Assembly: GCA_973895155.1 (NCBI GenBank)
Contig: OZ316891.1
Location: 27,041,154-27,105,153 of the forward strand
Direction of reading: 5' to 3'
Source of the DNA: Marsupella aquatica
Lineage: Eukaryota; Plantae; Marchantiophyta
DNA length: 64,000 nucleotides
Position 1 is the stretch's first letter; the number at the start of each line of letters is the position of its first letter. This document shows positions 21,639 to 58,337 of this stretch, in pieces. The notes under the pieces are model-generated. The model was not told where the DNA came from. It searched no databases and saw only the letters and a program-made list of their open reading frames with translations. A program made the translations under genes and the position numbers.

Positions 21639-24600
21639 AACTGGGCCTTATTAGTTCTTTTGGAGGTGATCGCCAAGCAGGTAGTTGTTTTGACTTCTAC
21701 TAGTTGTCGTGACATATAGTATCGTAGCCATAGTATATCGAAAACATACAAGTCACCGGCAATGCATATGTGCAAGATGCTAGCAACCAACATCCTTAGA
21801 AAAAGTCCAATCACATTCACAAGTGCCAAGAAAAAGCAACTGAGGTGGTATGTACATAGTGGAGGTGTAAACCTCTATATATAAAAGGCGTAAGAGAAAC
21901 AAGCGTACTGAAATCGAATCGAAACCGGCGAGATGCCAAGATCGGCCGGGAGCATCTAACGAATCACTGTGTGAATCCCGTGTACGGAACCGACGAGCAC
22001 TGTCTAAGCTCTGTCAACAGCGATTCAAGAAGAACTGAAAAACGGCAAAGAAAAACATGCCCTAAGTAGGTCCGGGTCCAGGCATCACACTAACAAACAC
22101 TTTGCTTCAAGAACGGCCCAGACTCGCTACAAGAACATGACACTAACTCAAGTAGTACACTAGCCCTAACTACATACCTAGCGGGCATGCGAGGGACATG
22201 CCAATGTGCACAAGAGGCACTATCCCTCGGCATGACATAGTGACACTTTCTTGACACCTTACTTGGCACCACTAGAAGAAACCGAGCCATTCTGAGACCC
22301 AGCCTTACATGACTTGTGTGAGACCTTTGAAAATAAGTGACTCCAAGGTTTAGGGTGTCATCTTTGTTACATCTTCTTGACTCACTTTTGGTGAAGTTCT
22401 GGGAAGTCATGTATTTAACTATTGGGAAAGTTGCTTCTGTAACTGAGTTAAGGCAAGTATATTGAAGTTATATAAGTGACCATGACTTACATGATTTCCT
22501 TGCCCAATACATATGATTTTGGATCCATCATATTAATCACATTATGTCATGCAATTATATATAGTTACCTCCCTTTGCTTTAACCATCACTGAGTTGCTC
22601 TTTATTGTTCCCCTGTAAGAAAGTATACATGACATTTTTACCCTAATTGAAGTTTAGGTAAGTAGGGCAAATTTGTGATTCTAGCTAGACAAGAACCAAC
22701 CAAATTTAAGTTAACATTCATGTACACGGCCGCAACTGAGTTCAAAAAGGTGTGAAAATTTGTGCCATGCCCCCAAAAATAATGATGCACCCTAAACCCT
22801 AATACTCTACATACATAGTTACCTTAAAAAAGTCACCACAACCAATTAGTGGTACTTGTCACATACTGCTCACACACATATTAAAACTCACTTCATCCAC
22901 TAACTCATTTTAAAAATTTGCTCTGCATATATACCCCATAATTAGCCAATATCAAATGGAACCCCCTTCATATGGGAATATTGAAGGGCCCAATTTAGGA
23001 CCTCTTTTTCCTTAAGTGCACAATGCAATGCCGTTGCATCAATTTCTCTATCGGAAGCCCTCTTCCAATGAACCATGTTGCGCAATTGCAAGTTGATACC
23101 AAAACTTTTGACTGCCAAAAGCTTTTGTGGAGGGACTTGGAGAAAGAGAGAGTGCGCCCGCAAAGTGAGAGTCTTGTTGTTTCATGAGCGGGAAAGTTTT
23201 CACACACTAGTAGAAACCGGGGCAATTTATATGTCAAGGCTAGGGGGTGGCTGGGTTTTCACTAAAGGGGGTTTAGGGGGGGTTTGATGTCAAGGGTCGG
23301 GGGTTGCATGTTAAGGGGATGGGGGTTTAGGGACCATTGGATCGTCGGCATCCATCCCCCCCGGTCCATTCTTCATCCATTTAACCCTCTTTTGCCAATG
23401 ACTCCAAATGTCCAATGGGTTTTCAGAGGGTTTATGCTTGAGGAGGGTGAGTTTAAGGGTAGGTGTTGTTTTTTGCCATCTGGGTGACTTAGGATATTTA
23501 TCTAACCCAATGACTATACCCAAAATACCCAACTAAAAGCCCCCCCCCCAAAAAAAATGCATGCACCCTTGGTCTTAGTTACCGTTTAATCCTAACTGTG
23601 AACTTACGTCTAAATGTGTTAGGTGCTTGCAGAATGCCTATGAACGAGTCCTTCCAGTCGACTCAATGTTTAGGGTAAACGGATTTTGTAAAGGAAAATT
23701 GCACAAAGTGTCGACGGCTACCACTAGGGTTTTCCTTCACGTTTCTGCAAGGGAATCCAAGGCCAAACACTTTGCGCCCGATAATGCACTTTTCCTCAGT
23801 TGCTCTCGACTCTTGCACCTGATCGCACTCAGTCAATACATTTAGCGCTTTTGGAGGTGGGATTTCATGTCATTGCGTAGGGCTTGGAGCTTCGACCTTT
23901 GCTATATGACCCATTGTCGACTGCAATCTCACTATAGGGTTTAGGTGGGCCCTAAATCTTACATTCGTCTTTCCTGTGGTGACAACGCGGGTGCTAAGGT
24001 GTATAGGAGCAAGGTTGTTGGGAGGTTTATCGCGGATGACTGGCGATTGGTGAGGCCTATTTGCATTCATCTCCACTATCATTGGGTACCCGAGATACAA
24101 CGATCGACCTTCTATACAGAGGCGAGGAAGTGACGAGAACCTACAACTCTTTGCGGGAATGCGTGGTCTTCTGCTTACCTGATTGCCCTCATGCTTGACT
24201 GTAAATACATTAGTAAAGTTTTGCTTTGGCTCAACTTTGGTCTTTTTTGGCCTTGCGTGACTGCGCTCACTTCTCTCGGTTTCCAGTGTGTAGTTGGCTA
24301 AAGACCTGGATGTCATGCTGTGAGCGCAAGCTGCTAGTAGTTGTCCATAGCTTGGGGAAAGCGGTGGGGACTGAGGCCACAAAGGAGTTTGACCTGCGCT
24401 TTTTTTTCTTTGCAGCAAGAGCGAGAGTGAGACGAGTTGCAAATTGAGTTTCATTGAGCTGCTGCCCTGGGCTTGGCGGAGGTCCTACACTCTTGTGTCG
24501 CTCACTTGTTCAGCTCGGGGTTCAGCTGCGGTGGGAGCGGGCTTTTGGTAGTGACCTGTTCAGTTGCAGTGGGAGCTGACAACTTTGGTGGCTGTGGTGT

Positions 24601-27436
24601 TGAGCTTCTGAGGAGGGCAAGCAACTGCGTGATGTGCCCTTGAGTGAATGTCTCTTGGAGGAGCTGCGAAGTGGTGAAAGGGGAAGGAGGTGAGCTCGGG
24701 CCTGGAAGCAATGTGCTTCTCCAACATTTTTGCACAATGCAATGCTGCTCAATCGTTTATCCTTCCTCTAAAGCTGAGTGTGATGCATCGACCTTTGACG
24801 AGAGTATCTGCATTACAGTTTGCTACATACGGCTGCTCTCTGTGTGGCAATCGCCAATAGCTAGCGCAATGGAGGGTTTGACGTCAACTTTGAGTCATTG
24901 ATCAGTGCACACTACATCGCTCTCCCTTTGCTAAACCCTTTCTTTTGGCTTGGTTCTTGGTGCCTTTGGCATAGGAGCGACGTTATTGCTAATCAACTCC
25001 CGAATCAACTTTGGAGGTGCGGGTTAGAAGGGGTTGGAGAGAGGAGGTCCAAACCGAGAATGCCCTTCACCGTCAATGGTTTCTACTAGTCCCGGCCATG
25101 CAGCTGAAAGTGCGCTTCTTTCAGGTGTCGTAGCATTCTGCCAGCCGGGTGCTTGGACTGCAGAGAAGAGCAGCCACAGTCATTCAGTTCTTCTCCTAGC
25201 TCAGCTGCGCATTGTCAACCATCGAGCGCTGCTGCGCGCTAGCTGTGAACCCCAAGAGGAGCTGCGACAAGGAGGAGATGCAACCAAGAGGAGATGCGAC
25301 CAAGAGAAGCTGCTGCATCCCACATTGAGTTGGACATTGAGGTAGGGACGTGAGCTACGCACTTTCAACCATCAAGCAACCACCAAGCTCGGCAGCGCTC
25401 TGGGATTTGTTGGCCACAACAGACAAAGCGGAAGACAAAGGTGAGTGTTCGTGCACCGTTAGAGTAACCGCAAGTACTCTATTACATGCCTCGTTGTTCT
25501 CTATTACATGCCTTGTTCTCCCGCCCACTGTTTCCTGCGATTTTCTTTCTTCCATAAGAGAATGGTGATTTCTTCTTCTATCAAACAAAACCCCACCCAA
25601 CCACCACACAAGAACGTGGGGTGCGCGCTTCTTAATCCTCCTCAAACTGGCCCATTGTTCATTGAAACCCCACATATTACCCACCGGCACCAAGGGTCCA
25701 GTCCCAACCCGTCTTCCGCTCCCCACCATCTTCACTCTCTCGCGCATCTATCTCCTGAACGGCGTCGCTCTCCCTTAGACGCAGAATGCTCCGCTGTGAT
25801 ATTGCCTCCAACTTTTCTAGTGCAATCTAGGCAATTAGACTGCTTTTGCGAAAACTGCCCTTCTTAAAAGTGAGCAATACTAATAAGCCCCGGGGGTGGA
25901 GCGTTTGTTACGATGGCCGTGGACCTACCGTGGGCTATGGTAGAACACTCTATTGTCTATGATGATTCTGAATCTGCTTGAACTGCGAGTGGATGTGCTT
26001 TAAGGCAAACTTGTCGGAGAAATTAGAATGGGGGGACGGAGCTGTCAGTGCTTAGGTTGTGGCATTTTTGAGATTGTCAAGAGTAATCTGTGATCTCATT
26101 TCTAAATGGTTTGAGCTCCTCTGATGTGCATAGGAATCGGGCTGAGGAAAGCTTTTGGGAGCTATCATCGGAACTAGCTTTCGATCTATTTCTGCTACTT
26201 TTGAATTGGTACTTGGGAAGGCTTTGTATCGTTAAGCACTACAAGATTCACAGGCCAGACCTGCTTGCTAGTATGAGGGGCTTTGAAGGAATGTGTGGCC
26301 AGGGCTGATTAAGTATGGATTAATTTTGCATTGCCTGAGATACTGAAACTGCCACCCGCTTTGTTTCAATGCCTTTGATATTAATTGTTAATATCTCAAG
26401 AGGGTCGTCAACTAAGCTGAAAGGAGTCAAAGCTAACTACAAGCTAGCAAATACAGAGAATGCTCCCAAGTCGAGTCAGGAGGAAGTTACTAAAACTAGA
26501 CCTTCACAACTCTCGAAACTGGAAAGTGAAATTCAGCGTGAGACACGTAGTTGAAGGCCACAAGGATAACTATATGGCCACGCTGTCCCCCATTCAAGTC
26601 CAAAGTCCTCTTCAGATTGTCTGAACTCCTATTGAATGTATTGAATAATTATTTCATCACAGAAATTTTCAGAACAAACACGAAAGCACCAGGGGGCTGA
26701 GGATTGGATATTGAGGCTGAAGACATTGAGGTCATAAACTAGGTGTGGTTCGGGTGACAATGTTAGCAACTGATGCTTCTTCAGGGGAACTTCCCATGTG
26801 CAGTTTATCCACACATGATTGACTTTGGTTCTTGCTATTTTTCTTTTGGTGTACTCTTGAGTTTGATGTCACTCTATCCTTTCCTGTAGCCTCGAAATAG
26901 GAACACACCTGCTTAGTGGTCCCCAATCGCCCAATGATTTATAATGACTGTGTCTAGGTGATGTATGCATTGCGTGTTCATTCCAGAAGAATGAATATGT
27001 ACACTTTGCACAAACCTGGACAGATTTTGAATGTTATTTATCTGAGTTTCTGTTTGTGAGCTCTAACTTGGAGCCTTAACATTTGTGTTTCTGTGGGGCT
27101 GAGCAGAGTTTGTTCCGTCTAGAAGCTGCTGTACTGAAGTGATCAGCCTCCGGCTTGGAGGTGAATCTTCAATTTTTTGTGGATTCGAGTGACTTCTGTC
27201 CAGCTGAGTTTTGCTTTGTCGGGACGATTGTGTTTGGCTAAGATGCTAGATTGTGGCTTGTCTTCTTGCTTCCAGCTTGTGTATTTTCAATTAATAGAAG
27301 TTGGGAACGAAGTGATAATTGAATTTCCTTATATTAAGCATCTTCACCTAGAAACTCAATACATAAACTCCAGGATTCCCTCGGGACATAAAATGAGCCA
27401 AATTGTCTCAAAATTGGGAACTTGCACCCGCACTAC

Positions 27437-27779
27437 TCAAACAATTGTGTTGGGCTTGGTGGCCTTGTAAGTCTTCTTTAGCTTTCGCAATGGAGGTTGA
27501 ATCTTGCAGTACGTCAAGGGGAACTTGATCTTTGAATCATGGAACTGCTTGGTACTTTCTCGCTTGCACAGAGAGACAGGGACTGTCGTAGTCTTCATGA
27601 TCTGGATGCAAGGGAACCGAACTCTATGACAAGAAGCCATCTCATCATACATCTGCTCTGCAGCTCCGTTTCTTGTGGTATCACAATATTCCTTGTACAT
27701 GTTGTGATAACCTGTACGACTCTGATACGTGGACCCAGATACCGAAGTTCTTAATTGTGGTGGGCTTCTTTTCGAAGAT
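27437..27779 (-). pseudogene. RPL18a: Captured last exon of 60S ribosomal protein L18a (eL20), frameshifted
   Basis: After a TACCAG acceptor: [16 protein letters not shown]-(frameshift)[14 protein letters not shown].[47 protein letters not shown]...KTYKATKPN. Confidence 0.93.
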
Positions 27780-28787
27780 CTGGTAGACACATTATTCAGC
27801 ATTTGCTAACTTCGAAACTAGAAGGGTAACACATTAAACAACAGAGAAACTCACAACATCCTCCTTTGGTCCTTCAGAGTCTGTACTTTGATTCTGAAGT
27901 TTGACTGAGTTTTTGTTTACTAAAAGAATGTGACTGTGTAAGAGTTCCATTTGGCAGTGGATTGGTTGAAGCACTTCATGCTAGTGTGTTGTCCACAGCT
28001 CTTCAACTAGCTTTCGTCTTCCTTGTCTTTCACCACTTACGATGACATCAATTCAGCTAAGACCATAGAAGGTTCCAAAGCATCTAACTTGTAAAATCGC
28101 ATTCTGTTACATCAAGGACTAAGGTGTTGGGTGCCAAAGGAGACAGCACAACAAACACGCTGAAAAGACTTCAGGACTGGGTTCAACAAGGTAGTGAAGG
28201 TGCTTAGAGCCATAGTAAGTATGCATTCTGTATCTTTCTCTGTTGATGTGAGCTTGTGCATAATGGGAGTTGTAGTTGGCAAGAGTTCCAAATATGAATA
28301 GATCCAGAAGTATGTGATCATGTACTTGCTCTATAAAGTTCTGAAGATATAAGCATTTTCTGTTAGACCAGGCAACTTGGGAGTTGGTAAGTGTCACCTG
28401 CATCTGAGGGGCTACACCGGGGCATCAGTGGAGGTTCACTTGCACAACACGACAACCAGTGAATTTTCTCTCTACTGCAACCTGCAAGGTGAGACTTTCG
28501 GTCTTTCTGGATGAAAAAACAGGAGTTTAATATGATTGATATACATGTCCGTCGAGAATATGGGTTTATCACCAAGCTCTTTGTCTTAGGAAACTCATAA
28601 ACTCAGAATCAAATATGTACTATGCACGTTTCATGCTATGTGTATACTATGACCTGTAGTTGGAACCAAGACAATGAGTGGGAACTGATTAGTTTAGGTG
28701 GTTGTTGTTGGCGAGGCAAGTCGACCTCCTGCTCACCTTGCTCATCAAAGGACGTGAACAGAGGACATCACAACGAAAGCAACACTT

Positions 28788-29237
28788 ATGGTGAGGACCC
28801 GCAACGCTGAACATGTGCGACTTGCACGCAAGGCAGAGATGTTGCGCCTTGAGTATGTCAGACTTGGGATCCTTCCAGCCCAGTCTGCATGGTACTTTGA
28901 GTACCCTGTTGTTTCCAGGAACAACTACAGTCGGCCTCTACCTGCTTCAGTACCCTTCCCGACATCCTTGGTATTTGTGTCTCTTGTACATGACCCGCCA
29001 CAAATTAGGTGCCAAGGGTGTGTACACAGTTGCCAATATGACTGTCCTGCCTGTAGGGCTTCTGGCCCAGAATTGGATGACCGTTCTCTTGGATACCGAT
29101 TTTTGCACAGAGCACAATGTATCATCTGGAACCACTCGCCATCCTGCAGTGTGCCTGGTGATGTCACTTGTCCTGCCCTCCCAGACCCCACCACCGGTGA
29201 CTTTGGTGTCTACACATGTTTGGATCACATGCTCTAG
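28788..29237 (+). CDS. CACTA cargo: 149-aa Cys/His-rich protein of unknown family
   Basis: Intact ATG-TAG ORF; MVRTR N-terminus; CQGC-H-C-CPAC-H-C-H-C-C-C-H pattern; homologue at 58851. Confidence 0.55.
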   Translation: MVRTRNAEHVRLARKAEMLRLEYVRLGILPAQSAWYFEYPVVSRNNYSRPLPASVPFPTSLVFVSLVHDPPQIRCQGCVHSCQYDCPACRASGPELDDRSLGYRFLHRAQCIIWNHSPSCSVPGDVTCPALPDPTTGDFGVYTCLDHML

Positions 29238-29852
29238 AGGACCACTTGTCACACCGCATGCACAGACCAGATACCATTGACCTATAGCTTAACACTCTGA
29301 CTTCAACACAGAGGATATTTACTTAAAATTTTGATGTATGAGCAATTTTGGGTCCAGGGTTTAGGGTCAACAGTACATAACTTATATCCTATTATGCCTG
29401 CACTAAGCAAAATATCCTAATTTAAGAGGCTAGCAAACTCGCATAAAAGTCTCTATTGAAAGACTGCTTTCATGACTGCTTTAACCTGGTGAACATTGCA
29501 ACGTTCAATGAATTAATGGGCCATGTGATAATATGAAAAATGATTTATGCCTCACTTATTTGTCTCAGCCACTATCATAACCTATTTAGGATGTATAAAT
29601 TTCAACCCTTATGACACTGCTTCATACCAATCCTCTTCGAAGAATGCCTGTTTTACATGTCACAACTATTGTATGTGATTCAAATGCATGAAATGTTGTT
29701 GCAGATCTCCTTTGGTGAATCATAGCCACAATTAAAATTGCGGTGTTGGTGGAGAAATTGTATTAGGGGATCAGTTTTGTGTGTGGGCTCAACATACCAA
29801 AAGTATGTGTGCTCTGCATCCTTGTGTGGCCATTCCAATTCATTGCAGTAGC

Positions 29853-29996
29853 AAATGCCTTTGTACCTTAAATGCTAAATATATTTTACTTTCTGTGCAG
29901 TCTGCTAAATTGTAGAGTCTATCTAAATGCCTTTGTACCTTAAATGCTAAATATATTTTACTTTCTGTACAGTCTGCTAAATTGTAGAGTCTATCT
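29853..29996. repeat. 72-bp tandem duplication immediately upstream of the PHD ORF
   Basis: AAATGCCTTTGTACC...GTAGAGTCTATCT occurs twice; also present at ~59920-60062. Confidence 0.9.
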
Positions 29997-30007
29997 CATG
30001 CGCAGGC

Positions 30008-30688
30008 ATGGCACGGCCTAAAATTCAAGCCAAAAAGCGTGTGACAGAGGTGAGAAACACAGGTGTACTTGGGGCAGATGCTACTAACTTCTCTGCAAGT
30101 CAGATTTTCCAGAAGGCAGCTCATTGTTGTGCCATTTGTGACGATGGTGGGGGCCTGGTCATTTGTGAGGGCCCTTGCATGAGGCATTTCCACCTCAACC
30201 CGGAGTCTGACCTTGCTGCAGAAAACAACTGTCCAGGGGTGGGCCTCCCGTCAACACACCAGGGAGACTGGATGTGCACTGATTGTTTGGAGAAGCAGGC
30301 TAAGTGTGCACAGTGTGGGAAGTTGGGGTCCTATGAGGGCTCTGTTAATGCTGCAGCAAATGTTAGGAAATGTCCAGACCGTTTTTGTGTGAGATTTTTC
30401 TGTTTTGAGTGTTTGCCTGCTCATGCCACAGCTTGCCCACTTCATAGGTGCAAGGCATGTGGTGAGCATGATGATGACTACTGGACTGACATAGTCCACT
30501 GTGCTAGGTGTCCCACTATGTGGCACTATCATTGCCTGAAAGATCATCAAGCAGAGGGTTATGCTTGTGACAGAGAAATCTATGATCACTCTGCACATGG
30601 TGTTGATCGATGGATATTTTATTGTCATCGCCATGCCATTGATCCTACCTCGCGCACTCCTGTGAGAGATCACATATCTTGGCTGTGA
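30008..30688 (+). CDS. CACTA cargo: stand-alone EDM2-type multi-PHD finger protein (226 aa)
   Basis: CAICDDGGGLVICEGPCMRHFH...C..C....CAQCGKLGS...C....C..FF...C...CPLHRCKAC...CARCPTMWHYHCL...IFYCHRHAIDPTSRTPVRDH parallels the EDM2 PHD region as recalled (CAICDNGG..CEGSCLRSFH...CPLHKC..C...CRRCPKSYHRKCL...IYC..HEID....TPVRDH). Confidence 0.88.
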   Translation: MARPKIQAKKRVTEVRNTGVLGADATNFSASQIFQKAAHCCAICDDGGGLVICEGPCMRHFHLNPESDLAAENNCPGVGLPSTHQGDWMCTDCLEKQAKCAQCGKLGSYEGSVNAAANVRKCPDRFCVRFFCFECLPAHATACPLHRCKACGEHDDDYWTDIVHCARCPTMWHYHCLKDHQAEGYACDREIYDHSAHGVDRWIFYCHRHAIDPTSRTPVRDHISWL

Positions 30689-31280
30689 AGCTGAACATTG
30701 TACATGCACAGTGCACCTGATGTGGATGTACTATTTTTTGAGATTGCAGAGATTCCAATTTTGAAAAGGAGTTGGGTAGGCGAGTTTATATAGGCAGCAC
30801 TTATCTTGTGCTCTGGCGTCAGTGGTTGGGTACATGCCTATACAAACTTATCCTTACAAGCCTTCTTGGAAGTATTTAGGCTGAGTGGTCATTTTCATAA
30901 ACACTTTCATCAGACTGCTAAATTAAAACAGGACTTCTAAGTTGTAAGCGTATAAATTATCAGGCATGCAATTAATCAAATTGCCCTATAAGTTTGTCAT
31001 TGAATGTATCCTCCTTTACAACAAAATATGTATGTGCCATGACAAGTTGGTTGCACTTCATTTCACCACGGATATGGATTTTGTAGTATATATTCAAACA
31101 ATGTCCTGCATCCGTGCAGGTGCCTAGTACATATTGTTCACATATCCCTTGTACCTATCAAAATCGGACCTGAGCACCAGTGGGCCAGATCAACTCAAAA
31201 AGCAGGAATTTTGTTGTCCTTGTATTGTCAGGTGAACCCATTCTTCCAAAATTCACTGTCATCACGTAGAGTGTGTGTAC

Positions 31281-32153
31281 ATGGAGCCTGGTAAACGTAG
31301 AAAGTGTGACCACCCAGCAGTGTTTACAGGGGTCAGAGCGATTTTGGTCCATGGCCAGCATGGGTTGACCAAAGTGCATTGGCCAACTGTACAGAAACGA
31401 TTCTCTGAGCTCCATGGCACTGTAGTTCAGGACATCACTCCAGAGACTACACATGTTGTTGCAGGGACATGGCTATCAGTGATAAAGAAGTGGTCATGGT
31501 CCTACATGAATTCTGCAATTACTAAGCAAGGCCTAAAAGTAGTTGAGGCCTCTTGGATCACAGATTCCATAGCACATAAGATTGTACAGGATACTGAGCA
31601 ATATGAGTTGTGGGAGGATGAAGAAGCTTCTGCATCAGCTTGGGCTGAACAAGAAGTCTGGGAAGCAAAGGCACGGCTTGCTGATCTCCAATATGGACCT
31701 GTACTCAACAAAGGACAGAGCTCTACAAGGCTGAAGTGTATGTTGGCTGAGGAGACAAAGCAACCAACCCCCATTCTGAAAGGGCTGAGCATGGTATTTG
31801 TGGAGGCAGGAATTGGAGAGGTTAAGTGCAAAGTGTACAAGTCCACAGTGCTTGACCTAGGTGGGACAGTGGAGGAGAATATAACAGAGGACACCACTCA
31901 TGTCATTACTAAGTCATATCCCAAAGCCTGTCGCAAGTTTGGGAAGGGAGACATTCGCTTTTATGTCATGTCCCATAATGTGTTTGTGGTTTCATATGCT
32001 TGGCTTGTGGAATCAGTAGCAGCTGGGAAGCGTCAAAACCCAATGGACTATGATCTTTTTGAGGCCTGGCCACGGAAGGGTCAGGATCCTTACAGAGAGG
32101 ACTATGAGACAACAAGTGAGGAATGGGTCATTAGCGATTCTGAATCAGAGTGA
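31281..32153 (+). CDS. CACTA cargo: tandem BRCT-domain protein (DNA polymerase lambda-type BRCT), ~290 aa
   Basis: Two repeats with F/L.G...V..G, GTV...IT..TTHV and W..DS/ES...Y.L motifs. The second has VEAG...KFGK...YAWLVES..AGK, resembling the plant Pol lambda N-terminal BRCT. Acidic C-tail. Confidence 0.85.
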   Translation: MEPGKRRKCDHPAVFTGVRAILVHGQHGLTKVHWPTVQKRFSELHGTVVQDITPETTHVVAGTWLSVIKKWSWSYMNSAITKQGLKVVEASWITDSIAHKIVQDTEQYELWEDEEASASAWAEQEVWEAKARLADLQYGPVLNKGQSSTRLKCMLAEETKQPTPILKGLSMVFVEAGIGEVKCKVYKSTVLDLGGTVEENITEDTTHVITKSYPKACRKFGKGDIRFYVMSHNVFVVSYAWLVESVAAGKRQNPMDYDLFEAWPRKGQDPYREDYETTSEEWVISDSESE

Positions 32154-32586
32154 GGAGTAGTAGCATCAGTTTGGACACAAGTTTTTTTGTATAAATCAGA
32201 TCATTGAAATAAATGTGATCTTTGAACTAATGTACCTTGTTATGGTTGGTGGCAGTTGGGCTTATTTTACTATTGGCGGATTGTTGTTTCCTGCTGCCTG
32301 GGGGTGTCACTGTAAACGTACATGCAGAGGCGGTACATTTGAGGACAGCGGAGGAGGTGGTGACACCCTCCAACATTTAGGAATTTTGTGTCATTCACTT
32401 GACAATAGGTACACTACTTGCGAACCTGTTTTTTTCTTTTGGGGTGGTTTAGGGTTTGTGAGAATTTAGTACACGTTATGTTAACTCTTTTGGCAGATAC
32501 AGTCAGGGATATATGGAACACAAATACCACCATTAGGCATCCTTGTTCACTGCTGTCCATGACTGCAGAGCTCCCAGCCTGTTACA

Positions 32587-35500
32587 ATGCACCCTGGTCA
32601 CCACCCTCCCCAGACCCAGCCCAGGGCACAGGCACTGCCTTTGCATCATCCCACAAGGATATCACGCCATGATAATAAGCTTTGGCAGCGTGAAAGGTTA
32701 CGAACCAGACTTTCAGGAGCCAGTAGGATGAGATGTCCTTGTGCAATCTGCCAAGGATCCCGTACCAGGGGTCTGAATGAGGTTTGGCGGCATATCGCGG
32801 TTCATGGAAGAGATCCACGACATCGAGTTTGGAATGATCCTGCAGAGGAAGATTCTTCCGACGAGGAGTGGAGGTTAGAATTTGATGCTGCCAATGCTGC
32901 AAGACGGGCAAGTGAGGTTCTGCCTGGTGCATTTGAAAATGTTGTAGCTGGTGGTCTGTGGGTTGTCAGCTCTCCAACGGGATGGTGCTCAGGCAGCACC
33001 ACGTGACGAAGGAATTCATGTGGAAGAGATGGTGAGAGACATCTTCCAAGACTTGGATGCATTTCATGATGGGCTGGACAATGAAGAGGATACGGCTGCA
33101 GATGCAAGTGTGCCCCCTGTCGAAGAGCCTCTTGATGAGTTTGAGATAGGGCAGGAAACCCCTGGGCATGATGGGATGTTTGGCTCTCCCCTGCAAATAC
33201 AGGAAGGCAGGAAGTCTTTGTACCCCGGTAGCAAATGTTCTAAACTGGGATTTGTCATCATGTTCCTGAACATTTGCGGCAACCACAATGTCCCCAACAT
33301 TTTGGTTTCTGAGTTGTTGGCATTCTTGCGAACAACTGTGCTACCAGATGGTAATATTTTGCCCAAGAACATGTACGAGGCAAAAAGATGCATATCTAAT
33401 CTTGGATTGAACTATGATTCGATCCATGCCTGTCCTGATGGGCATGTTCTTTTCAGAAAGGAGTATAAAGAATCGTTGACATGCCCTAAGTGTGGGAAGC
33501 ATAGGTATCGGAACTCAGGAAAGTCTATGGTTCCCGCCAAGGTACTTCGTCATTTTCCACTCATTCCCAGACTTCAACGGATGTTCAGAAGCCGTGCCAT
33601 CTCGGAGATGATGACTTGGGCAACTGACAAGAAAAGTGATGATGGGCTACAACGACATGCTGCAGATTCAAGGCAATGGAAACTCATAGATGAGATGTAT
33701 CCCGAATTTGCTGCTGAGCCGAGGAATGTCAGACTTGGGCTGTCATTGGATGGGGTAAACCCATTTGGAGACAAGAACAACAAATTTTCGTGCTGGCCTG
33801 TAACTATTTTGAATTATAACCTTCCTCCTTGGATGACTACAAAGCGATTTTTTGTTCTGATGGTCCTACTGATACCAGGGCCAGACAGTGCTGTATCTGC
33901 CAACATAGATGTGTTTCTGGCTCCCCTAGTGGAGGAATTGAGAAAGCTTTGGGAGGAAGGAGTTCTCACATATGATGTCCTACAGAGGCTTGGGAGGTTA
34001 AACCCATTCATCCTTAGAGCCATTGTCATTCTGACTATAGCTGACTACCCAGCCCATGGGATGATATCAGGCCAAACAACAAAAGGATATTGTGCTTGTA
34101 CTACTTGTGGGCGCAATGTCACCAGTGAGTACTCCAGAGCCCTGCAGAAAGTGATATACATGGGCCATCGTTGTTTTTTGAAGGCAGATCACCCTTACAG
34201 AGAAAGACAAGCACTGATTGCACACTTTGGCAATGAGATTGAGCAACGTGGACCCCCGGCACGAGTGACCAAAGAGGAGATCAGGCAGTGGGGAGCACTG
34301 AGGGATGACTATATCAAACGAGGGGGCAGGGAAGATGGAGTGAGTGATCCAATAAAGCGATATGGTGTAAAAAGACTGAGCATATTGGACTTGGAGCTCA
34401 AGTACTGGAGGGTAAGCCTCTTGGAGTTGATGCTAATTGGGATACATGTTTTGGTTCAGAGCATGTGCATTCATTTCGAAGAGAGAGACTAAACTTGAGG
34501 CATTTCCTGACGCTTTTGCATTGCAACGATGCAGGAGTTTGAGCCAAGCAAACATAACATTGATGTTATGCACATTGAAAAGAATATTTGTGAGAGTCTA
34601 CTCAGATTCTTGTGTGGAGAGAAAGACACTGGTTCAGTGAGATTGGATCTTGAACAGAGGGGAATGAAACCCCATCTTTGGTTGAGGCCACATGCCCACA
34701 GAGCTGATGTGCTCTTGAAGTACCAAGCGCCCTATGTTCTGACAGACACAGAGTGGGAACTATTTGTGCAGAGGTTGAGTTCTTTGAAGGTTCCTTCAAA
34801 CTATGGCAGTGCTTTCAAGAAGCATATCATGAATAGAAAGCTTGGTAGTATGAAAAGCCATGACTACCATATGTTGATGCAACAGGTGTTGCCTTTATGC
34901 CTGAGGGGCCTGTTGCAGAAGCCTGTTCGTACTGTGATCATGCGACTCAGTGATGTGTTTCGTCGTATTTGTGTGAAGGTTTGGGATGAAACACACTTCC
35001 CACAACTGACAGAAGATATCGCTCAGGTGCTGTGTGACCTGGAGATTTATTTTCCTCCCGCATTTTTTGATGTCATGACCCACCTACTTGTCCATGTTGT
35101 GGAAGAGCTACACCAATTTGGGCCTGTGAGTGCTCGTTGGTTGTACCCTTTGGAACGGTACATGAAGCTACTCAAAGGTCACGTGAGAACATATTACAAA
35201 CCTGAAGCAAGCATGGCTAAAGGTTACATCAAGGATGAGACTCTGGGATTTCTGACCGAATACATAGCACAATATGAGCATGTGAAGACCAGGGTGTGGA
35301 ATTCTGATGAGGAGGAAGGGGTGATAGGTGAAGTACTGGAAGGGGCTGCAACCACAAAGAACCTGACCATATCTATGAGAGACTTGGCACATGACTTTGT
35401 ATTGCACAACACTGTGGTGATGGAACCCTAGATACAGTGAGTGCATACATGTGCTATAATCCAGTTCATGAGCTTAAATGTTGTGTTCGTGTGGTTTTCT

Positions 35501-36319
35501 CCTTCAACCTGTTCATGTTTACCCAAGCTAATGCTGTGTGGTTGTTTGTTTAGGGAGTATGAGTCATTGAAGGCGGCCCATCCCACTGCAGGAACAACTT
35601 TTCCAGGTTTCATGGAGTGGATCAGAGTGGCAATTAGAGAGCATCACGAGACCCACCCAGACATGGATGCAGATGTTTACCTACTGTCTAATGCCCCTAG
35701 CCTGAAAGTGAAGACTTACAAACGGATGAGAGCATATGGGAATCACTTCCGAGTGAAGGATGGTGACAGTGCCTACAGGGTGACGAATGACTGCGGGCTC
35801 ATCACTGTATTTGAGCAACAGAGCCACAATCACGACAGGGCCTGGATGGAGATGGGATATGTGGGAGAATTAGTTGACATATGGGCTTTGGACTATGGGG
35901 CGGTGTCCAGTCCTGTGATTCTTATGAAAGGTTCATGGGTGCGGCAGGATTGGCTTGGTAAGAGGGCTACCATGAAGAGAGACAACGACGGTTTCTTGCT
36001 GGCCAATTTCAGAGGAAAATTGCCCGAATGGTCTGAGCCATTTGTGTTTCCTAGTCAGGTGGAGCAAGCTTTCTTCCTGGATGTGGAAGACTCCCCAGGT
36101 TGGCGTGTAGTGTGTCATAAACAGGCCAGGCAACGTCAGATGGAAGGATCAAACCTTGAGTTTCATTTACACTCTCATAGTGCCTTTGATCGTCGGCGTT
36201 CAGACCAAGTGCCTGTAGTTCATGATAGCGGGGACTTCATTCCTGTGACAAGGGTAGATGCATTTGCTGAAGGAGGCGAATTCAGAGATGCAGATGCCAA
36301 CAGTGTGCCTGTGCCATGA
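32587..36319 (+). pseudogene. CACTA TnpD/Tnp2 transposase (transposase-associated, Transposase_21, DUF4218, DUF4216 domains); introns 34412-34534 and ~35437-35553; frameshift near 32950 and TAG at 35429-35431
   Basis: Motifs CPCAIC..H, IHACPDG, FAAEPRNVRLGLSLDGVNPF, YNLPPW, IDVFLAPLVEELRKLW, DVMHIEKNICES, MKSHDYH, FPPAFFDVMTHLLVH, WLYPLERYM, EPFVFPSQVEQAFF. Confidence 0.95.
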
Positions 36320-36475
36320 GTAATGTGAATTGTTTGCATGGACATTAGTGAGGGGAAGGATGTGTAATAAAGTAATTCTGAAGCAACACAGATGTATGGA
36401 TGGATGCCTGGTGATTGTGGTTGCATTGTGTTATACGGGGTGACCATAGATGACATGTTTTTGTGGTCCAGTAGG

Positions 36476-39400
36476 ATGGAACAGAGTGACACAGAGATGT
36501 GTGAGTATGAAAGGAAAGCTATGGAACAACGAGCATACGTGAAAGCCAAAATCGCAGAACTGGATCTGGAAAAGGATGTGGCTGAATTGTAAGGGAACGA
36601 TTCTCAACTACACCCCTCCGCTGAGTTTGTGTGACATGAATAGTTCAATGTGGCACTGAAATTGTGACTGTATTCTCATATTGGAATGTCGCAAAGCCAC
36701 AGCATTTTCAAAGAAACAAAAGGAGTACGCAAGAAGGGTGACCAGCACTATCTCTGGGCCTGTGCGTCGGAGTGACAGGTTGAGCAAGAAGGTCGTACCT
36801 ACAATGGCAGAATGTGGAGATGACATTGATGCTGCACAGGTGGGTGCAGACACTAGACAAGAAGATGCAGATGATGAGTATTTTCCAGAGGAAATAGATG
36901 AGGATGGGGGTTATGAAGATGAATACATTGCAGAGCAGCCCCAAAAGAAACATGTAAGTAGTTTTCCCAACAAGGTTTTGAGTTAAAAACTCGTGTTTAG
37001 AGGTTTCATATGTTCAGTACTACACATATGTACCTTGCTTAGTTCCTGACATTGTAGTTGGTGATGTGATGCAGCGTCCTGCCAGTTCTGTTTTGCCTTC
37101 GAAGCCTGTGCATGCACCATACCAGCAGGGGGGGCTGACCTCTGATCAAGGTTGGCGAGGTGGTAGTAGTGGTAGATCCCAGGCTGGTGCCCAATACTAT
37201 GGCAGGGGGCAAGCTCTAGGTTATGCCCGTGGTAGAGGCAGAGCAGGTCCAAACCCACAATCTCGTGGGTATGGACGTCCACCTCAACCATGGGGATGTG
37301 AGTATATATCTATATGCCAGTTCTTTGTGAAGGCATGGCACTCCTGAATTTCAGACTGCATATCAATTTTTGACATTGTTTGGGATGTATTGGATTCAGA
37401 CAACATGAAATTCTGTCCACCTGCCATTGCATGCAGATTCTGCCCAACCTGATTGGGCAAATGCTAGTAATGATCAGTTCCAATGTCCACAAGGACAGAC
37501 ATGGGTTGAACCAGGTTGGGAGGATGGTGGTGGGTCGTGGAATGAACAAGGTTGGGAAGGTGGTGAAGGTAATTGGCAGGGATATCAAAATTCAGTACCT
37601 ACAAACGCTGGAAGAGGAGCAAGTAATGTCTGATCTTGTCAGCAATGGAAGAACTCATTATATGTGGAGTCCATTCACGTGGGGGGGACTCTGCACATGT
37701 ATAATGATAGAAAATGTATGTGTGCAGGTTGGACAGTCGAACCATCGACTCAAGTATTCACTAATGCCCCTATGCAGATGCAGCACGGAAGGGGGACAGG
37801 TATGTCGGTGAATGTTCAGTTGTTTTCCTACAGTTTGTACTTAGTTTTCAGTACATATGTTTGCACACACATACCTAGAAAGTGACATCATCCGGCCCCT
37901 GTACTAGGCTGGACAGGTGGTCCAGGGTCGCAACAATTTCAGAGTGTAGTCCCTGCACAGGCATCTACAGGCAGAGCTACAGGTATGTATGTTTGAAGAA
38001 TTTTTCTTGAAGTGAAGCATTGAATGTTGCCGTCATCCATTCTGCTATATGTAGTTCTCAAGCATGAATGGCATTGTATTTTCCCAGGTGGCTTCAGAAC
38101 CCCAGGTAGGGTGAATGAAGGGGTGGCCAATACAACGCCCAGTACTACCGAGAGCAGTGCACGAGGGGAGGTGACAAAGAAAGGGAACGTAAAGTTGAAT
38201 GAGAGACAATGGGTGGATGCTGAGTGTCCTCGCAAGAACCGATGGCATGCTGATTTGAAAGCTGAAGTATTGCGTTGGTTAGATGTGAGTGTTATTAATT
38301 TTAAAAAACAGCATCCAAAAGATTGGAAGACTGTATGTGAAAATGTTGCTGCCAAATGGAATTATGTGGGCAGTGATGATGGCGTGGACATAGGTTGCCT
38401 AGAGAGTACAGCAGGTAAAATTATCAAGCAAGAGAGGTGGAGAATGCATAAGGCTTGGAAGGAAGGTGGGGAGAAGCCAGATATGCCTCCACCAGCCAGT
38501 TGTGATGATAAAGTGTGGGCAAGGTTAGTAGCTTATTTTGTAATAGATGCTTCAAAAAAGAAGAGTTCACAGATGACCGAGGCCAGGTTGAGTGTTCAGA
38601 ACCCTAATCTGACAAGAAGGACCGGCACTGCACCGACAGCTAAACGTTTGGTAAGAATGAATGGCCTAGCTATGTAATTTATGCTACACTATGTACTATT
38701 TTTTAGTGTAAACCCATACATGTAAACTTTGTTTTTTAGTGTACGTTCCCTGAATATTGATCGATAACTTGTGTTTGCCATGCATGTGCAGAAAGCCCAA
38801 TTGGGGCAAAGCCCTTCAAAAGAAGAGTTGAGGGCTGAAATTGTGAACACCCGGGCTCAAGAGGGTGCATCTGAATCCTCCAAGCATGTAAGTTATATGA
38901 GTTCTGATTGGTAATTGAATGACCTGCGTTGAATTTCAGGTGTACACTGTATATAACATTGATTGTGCATATATTGCCCAACATTTCATATGGAGTGATT
39001 GAACCTATACCCCTGTGTCATGTAGGGAGGTGGATCTTCACTTACAGAGATAAGTGGTCGTTTGAAGGCTGTCGAAACATGTCTTCCAGAGATCAATGAA
39101 CGTTTGAATTCATTGACTGACTTGTTCCATGTGAACTTCAAGACATTAATGGAAGCTGTTGTGTCGGTGAGAGATAAAATTGATTCCAATTCTGCAGGAG
39201 TTCCACCATCACCACTTGAGGTGGCAAAGTCGATGCACTCTTCTGGCATGCCAACGACATGTAGGCTTGAAGGTAAGGCCTTTACAACTGTGTGGGATAT
39301 GATTATTAAATGTATAGTTTGAATTGACATTGTTTGTTGAATGTGTTATTTTCAGTAACATATATTGTGGTTGTTGTGTCCATAGAGAATAAGATAGGTG

Positions 39401-40182
39401 CTACAGAGAAGAAGTATGAGAACCTGGCAAATACTCGCTGTAATTTAGAGGAAACAAAGTTGCAGTCTGTACAAGCAACTTGTTTGACAGAGGGCAGTCA
39501 ACCATGTTTGGATGAGGATGACATTGGCAAGGGAGTGGATGATATCAATGTTGGGGCAAATGAGGATATCAACAAGCATGACAATGATACCATTGAGCCA
39601 GATTCATGCTATGTAGATCTTGACTCCATTGCAGAGATAAATGATTTGCAGAATGTATCATTCTCAATGACAGGTGTGCCTCTTGTTGAGATAAATCCAA
39701 CCAAAGAGTTAGTTGGTATGACACTCCCAGGTGATGAACCTGCTACTGAGACAGTCCTAATAGAGGAACCTACTGAGCCTAGCTTCACTACTGTGAAGAG
39801 AGGAAGCATGCGCACACGAAGCAAGTCTGCTGGTGGGAGCAGAGCCACATCAAAGGTTTCATACAAACCTCCAAGAACAGTGCTGGCAGAAAGATCTAAG
39901 GTGGAAGTGGGGAAAGCACCTAATGCTGAGGGACAAAGTGGCTTGTTAGCTGTTGATGAGAGTGGAACACGAGTAGGATTTGCCAGAGTGCAGGTTGGTT
40001 CCACAACGTTCCATGGCAAGAGGATTCCCCCAGGTTATTCAGTAGTGTTAGTCACATTACTAGTGAAACCTAAAGCTGTCCTTCCCATTCCAAACACAAA
40101 TGATGATCCTCCTCAAAAGACACTTGGAGATGCTGCAGGTTCTTTGGTATTATGGCCAAGCAAGTTCATAGAGGATCCATAA
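36476..40182 (+). CDS. CACTA TnpA-like multi-exon gene (exon structure approximate)
   Basis: Series of GT-AG bounded coding segments: EYERKAMEQR..., RRSDRL, G/Q/R-rich low-complexity exons, a Ptta/En/Spm-like W..L..YF...KKKSSQM..AR segment (38089-38650), and a C-terminal FHGKRIPPGYSVV.V...LPIP....TLGDA.G..VLWP motif typical of CACTA ORF2. Confidence 0.8.
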
Positions 40183-40682
40183 CAATGTCATGCCATTATT
40201 TGTTTGTAGTGTGAGTCATGTTATGTAGATTTTAGATGTCAAGAAGCAGTACAAGAATCATGTCCTCTTGGAGATTCATAGTATCATGCATGTGCTTTCA
40301 GTTATCTCATCCTACAGTCATCAATTATGAGTTCCTGTTTTGTCTAAATTACATTGATCACATTGTAAACTATTCCATTGGAATTCAAATGATCTTCATT
40401 TTTTAGCAAGATTGTGATTGTGTTTAATTCTTATGAATGTTTTATGTAGGATCTGCTTATATGATGCTTTGTTTCATGTGGATGTCATTCATGCTATGTT
40501 CATTTCTTGTATTCAATGTGTTATATTTCTAAAGTTAGAACATCAGGTTTCTATGTATTGTAATGTCGAGTGCTCTCTCTCCTTATGAACTATCCCTCTG
40601 TGTTCATTAGTCATGGTTATAACTTGCATGTGAACCTTATTAGTTATAAACATGAGTATATAGAGTCCCAAATGGTTCTGTT

Positions 40683-41037
40683 GTGTGACGCGGGCCAGGG
40701 TCTCCATTGGTCTCTCCTGTGACACTAAATAGTCACACGCTAGTCGTTGTTGAATGCGGGTAAGTCATGTATGTGACTTACGATGTGACTCGCTGAAGTC
40801 ATATTGCAGTCACGTCGAAACAAGGCTAGACTCCACAATAAAGTCACAGATCAGTCACAAATGGGTATCAAGCAAGTTGCAAAGCCCAGTATCAATAGTG
40901 ACTTCCATTTTTTGGTCTCAACTTTTGCAACTCCAAGGGTCACAGCGTGGGTCAAGTCACGTTGAGTCACAATGAAGTCACATGAGCCAAAATGAGTCAT
41001 ATATTGCGGTCTCAGTTCACCTCGGATTCTTCTAGTG
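40683..41037. repeat. CACTA right subterminal repeat array (GTGAC/GTCAC/GAGTCA)
   Basis: More than 10 direct and inverted copies next to the right TIR; the same motifs occur at 22300-22500 and 53370-53540. Confidence 0.8.
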
Positions 41038-52011: not shown

Positions 52012-55000
52012 AAACAGGTAGCTTGTCCTAAGCTTGTCCTAAAATGTGGGGACTAGATCGACCCTGACTCTAGCAACCAACTCTAAAGTTCTTGCTCAAT
52101 TGATAGTCTAGGGGCCAAGTGACCTTGGAACTCAACTTCTATGCCTACTTTGCTTTGCCTCCCCAATGCAAGCTCCTGTACGTGGGAAACTCAACGCAAC
52201 TTGTCTGCTATTTTGGCACAATTTGGTAAGCGAGCGAGATAGCCCTCACAAACCCGAGAACCAATGGCACCCCTAGACCCAACTAAGATTAGGAGTATGA
52301 ATACCTTCTCAAGAACTTTCCAATGCATCCAAGAAGTCCTCCAATGGACTTCCTCTTGAGAAGTTATTGTCATTTCCATTTTACACTTCCTCTTATTGTG
52401 GCGACCGTCGTGGCTCACGACTAAATTGACTCGCCCTTGGCTCCCAAGGAGACATCACTCCCCTTGTATATGCTTCTAGAGACCTACCACTCTCAGGCCG
52501 GATTTGGTCCCCTATATTTGGCCCTCAACGTGGACTCCAACCCCCATGCAAAGACCCCCAACTAAGTTGTTATGCCCGCAAATTTCTAGCTAGACATTTG
52601 TAAGTGAGGTGCCTTAGCCCGTTGTGATCGGGCCAACACAGTGCTCATGCCTAGGCCCTGAGAACCAGTCATCAATTGAGGGACCCGGACAACCTCATTT
52701 GAGCCGCACCGTATCTCATGCTTTCAACGTCCGTTGCGCATGAAGTAAACTTTGTTAGCCTTGGGCCCAAGAGGAGCTCCCACTCAAGCCCTCATAACTC
52801 AAAGTCCATCCGAGGACTAGACTGTCCATCCTTAGCCCAGCCCAGGTTCCATGCCCGATCAACTCTATGCTAGTCTAAGTCCTTAGTGTGCGTCACCAGC
52901 TTAGCGCCTTGCTCATCCTAGTGCAACGTCTCATTGCCCCACTAGTCTCCCTATTCTTAGTCCCCACCAGATGGCTATTCTGGAGGCTTGGACCATAGAG
53001 GAGTTTGGTGCCAAAGATAGTGACGTTGGAGCTATGTGTTAGGGTAGTCAAGTTCCGCGACTGAGTACAGACACTTCTTAAAACAAGAGTTATGATAGAA
53101 ACTTAGAGAGCAGTTATGGCAAGGTTATTTTTTACTTTTTGACATCTCAAATACTGTCATCCCTCTTTCTCAAGACATGGTGATCGAGTTAAAGATTGCT
53201 AAACTATACCTCTAAAATCTCCAATTCAACAAATGTTTTCTTTGTCTTCATTTTATTAATTTTACTATGTTTTGTTTAAGATTCTATTTTCTTCAGGGAG
53301 GTCTGAGTTTCCTCTCTACACCACTCAAAATAGCACTAGAAGAAACCCACCCTTTCTGAGACCACAAAGAACGTGACAGTTTGTCCGAGACCTTCATGAA
53401 ACAACGACTCCAAAGTTGTTGGTGTCATGTTAGTCACACCTTCTTGACTGAGTTTTGGTGAAGTTTCGAGGAGTCATGTTTACAACTTTTAGGGAAGTTG
53501 TAACTATAACTCAGTTAAGGCAATTAGGTTGAAGTCATACAAGCTCTCTACATTAGAGTACAACTTATGAGAGCACAACATTTGAGCCCTTCAACCTTAA
53601 AGTATGGGATCTAACCCAATACATATGATTTTGGATCCCACATAGATTTAATTATAGTCAGGTCATACCATTTAAAACCATTACTGAGTATTCCATCATT
53701 ATTCCTGCCCCCATTTAGACACCATGAAGCGCGCCCCAGCCCCATTCAACTGCAAAAAGGATTTGTCAAAGCTTGCTAACCTAACTTAATGCTTTTTGTA
53801 GTCAATCTCTAATTTTTCTATCGCCGTCTTCTGGTCGTGCCAAAGGCGTGCTTAATTATCACCCAATTTCAGCCTCACATATGTAGGTTGGGTTTACTTA
53901 TTGCCATGCCCTAGAAACCTTCATGTTTCCCATGCCCCCTTCATATATGACAACCAATGCATGGTTCATGTTCAATATAAGTCCAACTTAAATATATATG
54001 ATCAGCTCTTCACTACCCCAACCCTAAAAAAGTGTACTTTTCATAATGGTAATGTGGGGTCATATATACCTCACTATTTGGCCACATTTTCACCAAATGG
54101 GGTGGTTCAAAGTTGTGACTAACCACTCACCCCACATATAACTATTGCGTAAGTCCTTTGGTTTCAAAGGAAAAAACTAATTAGGCAAATCATAGACTTT
54201 TGTGTCTCTTTTGTGAACTAATGTCTCCACTTCAATGTGCGTGAGTGTGCCTTTGGACACAAGTTTAGGGTGCGCGGGTTTTGTTTAACACAGCAATAGA
54301 GTGCAAAGTTGAGTTGAATGTGCGCGGGAACTCGGTTTAGGGTCCATTGTGCTTACGGCCGGGGACATTCATCGTGCCTGAAGGTTTTGTGAAGGGTTTT
54401 GTGCGAGGAGCTTTACGGACTTCACTCCCACTTGAGAGATGGTGATGGCAGGCAGGTGCAGCAACAGCGCTTGATCAAGGCTAGACTTTATTGCGTAAGT
54501 CCCTGCTCGTTGTCTGGATATGTCATTGTTGTCGGGGTCTTCATGCTCGTCTGATTCATCTTCTGCTCTTCGTGGCCGAGAGTTGACTACCTCACTCACT
54601 AACTTCTTGTCCAATGCATACCACAACCCTATTCCTCGTTCTCAGTCTGCGAGTTTGGGAGCTTTGGACTAGAGCACATGATCGGAAGCCTTGGACGAGA
54701 GACGCAGACTCCAATATCCAGCTTGAAAACAAACGGTGATTGATTTTGTCAGGTGAGAAGATCGAGAGCTCTAGAGATGGTGATGGCGTGTGGGCGTAGC
54801 AGCAGCGCTTGATCAAGGTTTGTCTTCTGCTGCCACTACTGGTGCGATTATTTCTACTCTTGGCTTTTCTCGCGGAAACAATAGCTCGGATCTGAGGGCT
54901 ATTGGCAGTGACACTGTTGCACCAGCCCCCGCGGAGCTTATGGGATTGGGAGGTTTTGTTAGTTTCATTCCGTAGCGGAGTGGCAGGGTTGAAGGTCGTA

Positions 55001-57524: not shown

Positions 57525-57748
57525 TCAAACAAATGTGTTGGGCTTGGTGGCCTTGTAAGTCGTCTTTAGCTTTCGCGATGGAGGTTGAATCTTGCGGTAC
57601 GTCAAGGGGAACTTGATCTTTGAATCTGCTCTACAGCTCCGTTCAACGTGGTATCACGATATTCCTTGTACATGTTGTGATAACCTGTACGACTCTGATA
57701 CCTCACCCAAATACCGAAGTTCTTAATTGTGGTGGGCTTTTCGAAGAT
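57525..57748 (-). pseudogene. RPL18a: Captured RPL18a exon, copy 2, with a 115-bp internal deletion
   Basis: [38 protein letters not shown].. joined to ..[25 protein letters not shown]. Confidence 0.9.
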
Positions 57749-58298: not shown

Positions 58299-58337
58299 AA
58301 CCAAGTGTAGAGTTGACTCTTTCTGAATATTGTAGTC
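58299..58337 (-). pseudogene. Ubiquitin fragment DYNIQKESTLHLV
   Basis: 13 consecutive residues identical to ubiquitin residues 58-70. No LRLRGG follows; the upstream sequence is decayed. Confidence 0.85.

Follow-up and report, generated by a model that had tools for sequence, protein, structure and literature searches.

We analysed a 64,000-nucleotide stretch of DNA from Marsupella aquatica (Marchantiophyta; contig OZ316891.1, positions 27,041,154 to 27,105,153 of the forward strand), hereafter called the window, which contains two copies of a CACTA/EnSpm DNA transposon. Between its left end and its transposase gene the first copy carries a trio of compact open reading frames (ORFs) on one strand, encoding a Cys/His-rich protein, a PHD-finger protein derived from EDM2, and a protein with two BRCT domains. 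We argue below that these are quite probably genes of the element itself, kept by selection, and that their products may act on behalf of the element against host silencing and end-joining. The features that bear on this argument are as follows.

22270..41037, plus strand: CACTA/EnSpm element copy 1, 18,768 bp
27437..27802, minus strand: captured RPL18a fragment, frameshifted (Pfam Ribosomal_L18A, E 3e-18)
28788..29237, plus strand: Cys/His-rich ORF, 149 amino acids (aa), ATG to stop
29853..29996, plus strand: 72-bp tandem duplication ahead of the PHD ORF, holding a predicted splice acceptor
30008..30688, plus strand: stand-alone PHD module, EDM2-derived, 226 aa, ATG to stop
31281..32153, plus strand: two-BRCT protein without a catalytic domain, 290 aa, ATG to stop
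32587..36319, plus strand: spliced TnpD-type transposase gene (introns inferred), with a broken frame in copy 1
36660..40182, plus strand: likely TnpA-type second gene, several exons, approximate bounds
53334..64000, plus strand: element copy 2, with a CACTA end at 53334 and a different left arm, extending past the end of the window
58299..58337, minus strand: ubiquitin-like scrap of 13 codons, copy 2 only
58851..62223, plus strand: decayed copy 2 versions of the Cys, PHD and BRCT genes
62576..62947, plus strand: F-box-like ORF, 123 aa, copy 2 only

A scan for CACTA ends delimited copy 1 by the termini CACTAGAAGAA, which are complementary at 16 of 20 bases, and both flanks carry the 3-bp target-site duplication CAC. 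The subterminal motif GTCA[CT] occurs 21 and 41 times per kb at the two ends of this copy, compared with 4.7 times per kb window-wide. The transposase matches the Pfam families Transpos_assoc, Transposase_21 (E 9e-70), DUF4218 and DUF4216, with the Transpos_assoc and DUF4216 matches falling under the Pfam cutoffs. Its reading frame in copy 1 is interrupted twice, by a +1 frameshift near position 32955, at which copy 2 stays in frame, and by an in-frame stop at 35429–35431; the copy 2 frame is truncated by the window edge. The region of the second gene yields a weak match to Transposase_24 (38024–38677, E 0.014, 16 bits against a cutoff of 28.7), and its other open frames have no Pfam match. 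Given that a transposase gene of its own is present, the element is a CACTA/EnSpm transposon and not a Pack-CACTA; neither copy in the window is alive as an autonomous element.

Copy 2 lies 12 kb from copy 1, across a repeat-rich region. From position 26382 in copy 1 and 56145 in copy 2 onward the two copies are 95–98% identical, their first 207 bp are 75% alike, and between these stretches they share no sequence. Because the cores are so alike, the termini only 75% so, and the arms between them without shared sequence, at least one of the copies is, to judge from this comparison, chimeric, with unrelated left arms joined to near-identical cores. The source of the chimera is possibly an exchange of ends among subfamilies (22270–26381 versus 53334–56144). 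The left arm of copy 1 also contains a second CACTA-like inverted pair (23205–25090; 13 of 14 terminal bases), which has no matching target duplication. Non-coding differences between the copies are enriched for transitions in CG (rate 0.11) and CHG (0.07) contexts relative to CHH (0.012), an excess that we read as the footprint of CG and CHG methylation. Together with the plant-type RPL18a capture and the named distant BRCT relatives given below, this pattern suggests a land-plant host, probably outside the seed plants.

A first-pass annotation of this DNA, made from the sequence alone, had described the cargo ORFs as intact in copy 1, and all three are indeed whole there, each running from ATG to stop. 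When the region 28700–32400 was base-shuffled 300 times, an ORF of at least 149 aa arose in 8 shuffles and one of at least 226 aa or 290 aa in none. The same annotation held that both copies carry the same ordered, same-strand set of ORFs; order and strand stand (96.7% identity over 4.0 kb), while an intact set is confined to copy 1. Copy 2 has a Cys ORF that ends early at codon 114, a BRCT ORF interrupted by a stop at codon 50 and, further on, by a frameshift, and a PHD protein without two of the zinc-ligand cysteines (C132Y and C165Y). Splice acceptors are predicted 36–135 nucleotides (nt) upstream of the PHD, BRCT, F-box-like and transposase starts, with scores that match those of two inferred transposase introns; the acceptor predicted ahead of the Cys ORF has a weaker score. 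The 72-bp duplication, present also in copy 2 (59919–60062), doubles the predicted acceptor ahead of the PHD start. An overlapping frame at 28813–29280 was considered as the gene of the Cys region; it has no Pfam match (its relatives were not searched), and the frame starting at 28788 was preferred for its conserved relatives. Further cargo was sought in 78 stop-to-stop frames of at least 62 aa from the arms and spacers, which returned RPL18a and one weak match only, and an Rfam scan gave no match.

The 226-aa ORF matches NSD-type PHD families of Pfam at values below their cutoffs (E 5e-5 to 4e-3), and matches the PHD cluster of NSD2 with an E value of 3e-19. Its connection to EDM2 comes through a metagenome protein of 1305 aa (L001), which contains RFD and PHD_NSD domains and a methyltransferase-like C-terminus that was read by eye; this layout fits that published for EDM2, in which an ELP domain accompanies two and a half atypical PHD fingers (PMC7529245). 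An alignment of nine sequences, comprising six compact PHD proteins and three EDM2-like ones, contains 28 invariant columns, and a C-terminal TP-x-x-DHI motif is common to the window protein and the EDM2-like rows. The window protein thus resembles Arabidopsis EDM2/ELP1 (PMC7529245, PMC3632883) in its atypical PHD repeat, its zinc ligands and its end motif, which bears out the EDM2-type label given to it earlier. It differs in size (226 aa, against 1305 aa for L001) and in its parts: neither an RFD nor a methyltransferase-like ELP domain was found in the ORF, which ends with the PHD module.

The window protein is 31–32% identical to L001 and the two other EDM2-like rows (32% to L001), and the compact proteins as a group are 28–34% identical to EDM2-like PHDs. 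An insertion of about 20 residues is present in all three EDM2-like rows and absent from all six compact proteins. Because all six lack it, the compact proteins form one derived family, and the 226-aa protein is a derived stand-alone EDM2 PHD module and not an EDM2. Arabidopsis EDM2 is bound to H3K9me2 chromatin and represses early polyadenylation (PMC7529245). We also observed PHD-only EDM2-like proteins in the metagenome set (L002–L007 and L009), about 50% identical to the PHD region of L001; stand-alone EDM2 PHD modules have thus originated in other places as well.

That the 290-aa ORF contains two BRCT domains, as proposed earlier, was confirmed by Pfam (E 1.7e-13, two stretches) and by a predicted model in which a long helix and a flexible, low-confidence linker join two BRCT folds. 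The best fold match is the BRCT of PARP4 (Z 16.1, root-mean-square deviation (rmsd) 1.4, 93 residues aligned). The packing of the repeats in the model is poorly defined, with a predicted template-modelling score (pTM) of 0.43, a predicted local distance difference test (pLDDT) below 50 for linker residues 135–161, and an rmsd of 8–17 Å to solved tandems. Assignment to a BRCT subfamily from fold searches was not possible, in that the searches confirm a BRCT and do not separate subfamilies; polymerase lambda was not among the rows shown, which excludes nothing.

A BRCT profile search against 1.84 billion representatives gave 61 matches. The best 14 of the 61 are proteins of 111–313 aa, each with a single BRCT repeat or a pair, and none of the 13 that were scanned contains a non-BRCT family. 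Named distant relatives include a stand-alone BRCT protein of Riccia fluitans (KAL2607684.1) and a protein of Mesotaenium. There is an unnamed family of small BRCT proteins, some with one repeat and some with two (P0011–P0023, P0027, P0030, P0035, P0039, P0063, P0072 and P0074), of which one is from Riccia fluitans; its members are possibly the cargo of related elements.

Among hosts of known architecture, polymerase lambda gives the best per-domain scores (45 and 46 bits for P0052), compared with 22 and 42 bits for BRCA1-like proteins and 23 and 31 bits for REV1. In a quick tree, built from 84 of 87 domain rows after three rows under 75 aa were dropped, the repeat-1 domains fall in a polymerase lambda group (Shimodaira–Hasegawa-like approximate likelihood-ratio test, SH-aLRT, 94) and repeat 2 is unplaced. 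We consider it somewhat probable, on these scores and groupings, that the protein was derived from polymerase lambda. The resemblance extends to the first helix of repeat 2 (PMC12056208); the window protein differs in that its BRCT is doubled, it has no polymerase domain, and a key arginine of polymerase lambda is not conserved in its family.

The first-pass annotation had proposed that the BRCT protein engages repair at excision sites, and the residues concerned give this little encouragement. A T-x-K motif is characteristic of the BRCA1-type phosphate pocket; it is not conserved in the alignment to BRCA1, and neither repeat retains it in the alignment of the family. In polymerase lambda, the residues that contact Ku are R57 and L60 (PMC12056208). 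The sites equivalent to R57, L60 and F61 are K182, V185 and Y186 in repeat 2 and H, T and V in repeat 1, so that the Ku-contact arginine is a lysine in the former and absent from the latter; these sites are variable in relatives. A basic residue occupies the R57 site in 5 of the 10 rows for repeat 2 and in 1 of the 9 for repeat 1, compared with 7 of 7 polymerase-lambda-type rows, and it is doubtful that the protein would have retained Ku binding. Polymerase lambda is reportedly involved in shaping Ac excision footprints in Arabidopsis.

The Cys/His-rich protein and two relatives share an MVRTR start and a C-x-H-S-C-Q-x-D-C-P-x-C core. Searches of Pfam, the PDB (to E 10) and the Atlas gave no family match and no usable Atlas match. 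A relationship to PHD proteins was considered and set aside, as a comparison with the PHD profile gave a probability of 0.1%, and a single-sequence model of the protein was unusable (pLDDT 35). Judged by its conserved relatives, the ORF is a real gene of what appears to be a new protein family, and its composition suggests zinc binding.

The element also contains fragments of host genes. The antisense RPL18a capture is decayed, as had been noted, with a frameshift in copy 1 and a 115-bp deletion in copy 2. A ubiquitin capture reported alongside it is likewise antisense and degraded, and amounts to a 13-codon scrap, present in copy 2 only, that looks like ubiquitin and has no database match. 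These decayed fragments (RPL18a and the ubiquitin scrap) are what the element has in common with Pack-CACTAs (PMC13317346), from which it differs in having its own transposase gene and main cargo that is whole and constrained.

The F-box gene assigned to copy 2 at 62522–62947 fared unevenly. The frame is open from 62522, with its first ATG at 62576, and in the Atlas the protein scores 0.93 against a cluster in which 58% of members are PF00646, with 104 of 256 features shared, ranking behind two clusters of unnamed 127–140-aa proteins. A Pfam-grade F-box was not obtained (E 0.13, 12.7 bits, below the cutoff of 20.5), and the match to FBXL5 has an E value of 0.38. About 50 residues follow the F-box-like motif, and no substrate-binding domain was found there. 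The ORF lies in a 637-bp segment that is missing from copy 1. All five indels of at least 10 nt between the copies have 3–5 nt of junction homology (4 nt for the F-box segment). The 115-bp indel is surely a deletion, because RPL18a is cut by it, and because the junction homology is common to all five indels, the RPL18a deletion included, the F-box segment is likely ancestral and was lost from copy 1 by deletion. A separately inserted element is disfavoured as its source, as the segment has no inverted ends and no other copy in the window. The earlier proposal that host factors are targeted for degradation by an SCF (Skp1–cullin–F-box) complex gains nothing from a weak F-box with so few residues behind it and from a copy 1 that has none.

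Several observations suggest that the trio has been under selection. Relatives that match over their full length were found for each protein: 2 of 1332 candidates for BRCT (294 and 295 aa; 59% and 54% identity), 5 of 81 for PHD (217–245 aa; 37–81%) and 2 of 23 for Cys (150 and 200 aa; 56% and 55%, with 97% covered). These are unnamed assembly proteins on contigs of 0.9–2.9 kb, and their starts and ends align with those of the cargo proteins. Cys and His positions are preferentially kept among the six compact PHD proteins (24 of 38 invariant, against 28 of 188 other positions). Over the three ORFs, synonymous and non-synonymous differences between copies 1 and 2 number 21.5 and 33.5, against a neutral expectation of 17.3 and 53.5; the rates behind this expectation are context-specific and were taken from 121 changes observed among 3717 non-coding bases. 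The pooled ratio is 0.50 (binomial p 0.008–0.016, Poisson p 0.003). The RPL18a fragment, used as a control over 58 of its approximately 120 codons (two alignable blocks), has 1 synonymous and 9 non-synonymous differences; its non-synonymous rate exceeds that of the cargo (p 0.004), and the comparison of cargo with RPL18a that had been suggested earlier thus came out as constraint on the cargo and none of that kind on RPL18a, at p 0.14 for the contrast in ratio. The CpG observed/expected ratios of the Cys, PHD, BRCT and F-box-like ORFs (0.40, 0.25, 0.19 and 0.29) resemble those of the transposase (0.25–0.35) more than that of a host histone H1 ORF in the window (0.79), as would be expected from long residence in a methylated element. 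Taken together, the relatives, the kept ligands, the deficit of amino-acid changes and the CpG depletion argue against recent passive capture, and agree with the earlier view of the cargo as long-resident, diverged element genes. On this evidence we regard it as quite probable that the three ORFs are selected genes of the element.

What the genes might do for the element is less certain. Our preferred reading, to which we assign a probability of roughly one half, is that they are accessory genes selected for the element's benefit, with the PHD protein directed against silencing and the BRCT protein against end-joining. The host domains would have been excised long ago, with loss of the RFD and methyltransferase-like parts of EDM2 and of the catalytic core of the polymerase, leaving both proteins as non-catalytic readers or decoys. 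The PHD module would likely dock on the silenced chromatin of the element, so that the element stays transcribable, and might compete with or replace host EDM2, and so promote transcripts long enough to extend into the transposase gene. As an adaptor, the BRCT protein may dampen or steer host end-joining. A zinc-binding partner or a DNA-binding specificity factor is the likely role of the Cys/His protein. The F-box-like gene was likely present in the ancestor and would be dispensable. Expression of the genes is likely to proceed through splicing from a left-arm promoter, as the predicted acceptors suggest. Considered separately, an action of the PHD protein in anti-silencing or read-through is tentative and falls a little short of an even chance, and an action of the BRCT protein at Ku or in end-joining is rather doubtful. 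A bolder version, in which a widespread early-land-plant CACTA lineage carries a standing array of decoys that imitate host proteins (a mimic of the EDM2 PHD hijacking heterochromatin read-through, a doubled polymerase lambda BRCT occupying Ku, a zinc-binding specificity factor and an optional F-box), much as viruses carry host-mimic accessory genes, strikes us as unlikely.

A number of results weigh against this preferred reading. No relative of the cargo was found inside a CACTA element: 11 metagenome loci (from 221 pattern matches) contain neither a transposase nor other cargo, and all 11 are host-type PHD genes; the PHD-only EDM2-like proteins L002–L007 lie on short contigs without a transposase; and six scans, four of viral and two of prokaryote contigs, returned no match to the cassette. 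Tested gene by gene, the deficit of amino-acid changes is significant for BRCT alone (p 0.014; Cys 0.16, PHD 0.31), and the contrast in synonymous to non-synonymous changes between cargo and RPL18a is not significant. The same ratio for pieces of the transposase is 0.35 (88 codons) and 2.15 (first 122 codons), and because of the latter value such two-copy estimates are to be taken as noisy. The divergence of the PHD protein was measured against a grass-like EDM2 and not that of the host itself. For the BRCT protein, 39 of 79 branches of the quick tree are open and REV1 also falls in the group with an SH-aLRT of 94, PDB sequence and fold searches place other BRCTs above polymerase lambda (which is mid-list in the profile search), and the closest relative (P0002) has a threonine at the Ku-contact site.

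The same conservation would be expected if the genes were selected for the logistics of transposition, with the PHD protein guiding the transpososome to a particular chromatin state as its target, and with the BRCT and Cys products as tethers of the TnpA/TnpD complex. Non-catalytic readers suit tethering, the two copies lie close together in a repeat-rich region, and accessory factors can modulate integration preference (PMC13547354). We nevertheless judge this reading improbable, as the cargo is not fused to the transposase and the donor EDM2 acts in the processing of heterochromatin transcripts and not in integration. A passive, Pack-CACTA-like carriage of lineage-specific host genes that already stood alone, in which the conservation would belong to the host copies, draws on the element's evident uptake of host DNA (RPL18a and the ubiquitin scrap), on the short contigs of the relatives, on the existence of the Riccia fluitans stand-alone BRCT protein and of PHD-only EDM2-like proteins, and on the damage to all three genes in copy 2. 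It is opposed by the amino-acid-change deficit between element copies, by the transposase-like CpG depletion, and by the presence of three or four whole genes in one strand and order where the clear captures are antisense fragments, and we give it little credence.

The first-pass annotation had gone further and joined heterochromatin reading, repair of excision breaks and SCF-mediated degradation into one integrated toolkit. Its domain content was right in outline, the F-box segment is likely ancestral on the strength of the shared junction homology, and BRCT repeat 2 keeps K, V and Y at the Ku-binding sites of polymerase lambda. Against it stand an F-box that is under the cutoff, lacks a substrate-binding domain and is missing from the copy in which the cargo is intact; a Ku site that is basic in far fewer family rows than polymerase-lambda-type rows; and the lack of any sign that the proteins act together. 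An integrated system of this kind is accordingly very improbable.

Within the known diversity of transposons, the window element resembles CACTA/EnSpm elements that encode TnpD and TnpA, some with a Peptidase_C48 (PMC8978399), in its ends, 3-bp duplication, transposase domains, Transposase_24-like second gene and 5' captures, and differs from them in adding three to four whole genes upstream of the transposase; the main text of that paper contains no occurrence of PHD or BRCT. Transposon-encoded counter-silencing factors are few: three, all from plants, were listed in a 2019 review (PMC6719617). Those most like the window cargo are VANC of VANDAL elements and mir820 of rice CACTA elements, also element-borne factors thought to counter silencing; VANC is a motif-dependent factor of the Mutator family and mir820 an RNA, whereas the window cargo consists of putative factors made of reduced host chromatin and repair domains. 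Fungal DNA transposons with TET/JBP genes, EnSpm included (PMC12730594), are similar in that a CACTA-type element has a whole epigenetic gene as standing cargo, and differ in carrying an enzyme instead of non-catalytic readers; PHD, BRCT and F-box do not occur in the main text of that paper. A Zisupton isoform (cited in PMC12062965) likewise combines an F-box with a DNA transposon beside Cys clusters, and belongs to another superfamily in which the F-box lies within a larger protein, unlike the short, separate F-box-like ORF of the window.

Our searches of the full-text literature brought up no paper that places genes for EDM2-type PHD or BRCT proteins within a CACTA transposon; one could be present in subscription papers, Repbase entries or supplements. 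The content of the cargo, namely reduced versions of a host chromatin reader and probably of a repair protein, appears to be new for such transposons, and elements with standing accessory genes are already known. If the preferred reading is correct, cut-and-paste elements can make domains of host machinery into tools of their own. The small cargo genes would each be directly testable in a bryophyte model, the BRCT cargo points to a probable origin for the unnamed family of small stand-alone BRCT proteins, and the Cys/His ORF adds a new protein family.

The remainder of the window is occupied in part by other mobile elements. A Ty1/copia element at 44410–51083 has 170-bp long terminal repeats that are 99% identical and gag, integrase and reverse transcriptase frames in pieces. 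Pieces of a Ty3/gypsy-like reverse transcriptase, RNase H and integrase were read by eye at 683–5955, and a 465-aa proline-rich coiled-coil ORF with no firm Pfam match lies at 4558–5955. The host ORF that served as the CpG control (10231–10935, minus strand) is histone H1-like. A fragment of a long interspersed nuclear element lies on the minus strand at 42336–42854 (zf-RVT, E 1e-4). Finally, a small dispersed repeat, about 75% identical between its occurrences, is found at 16898–17107, 21314–21640 and 51689–52013, and precedes the CACTA copies by approximately 0.6 and 1.3 kb.

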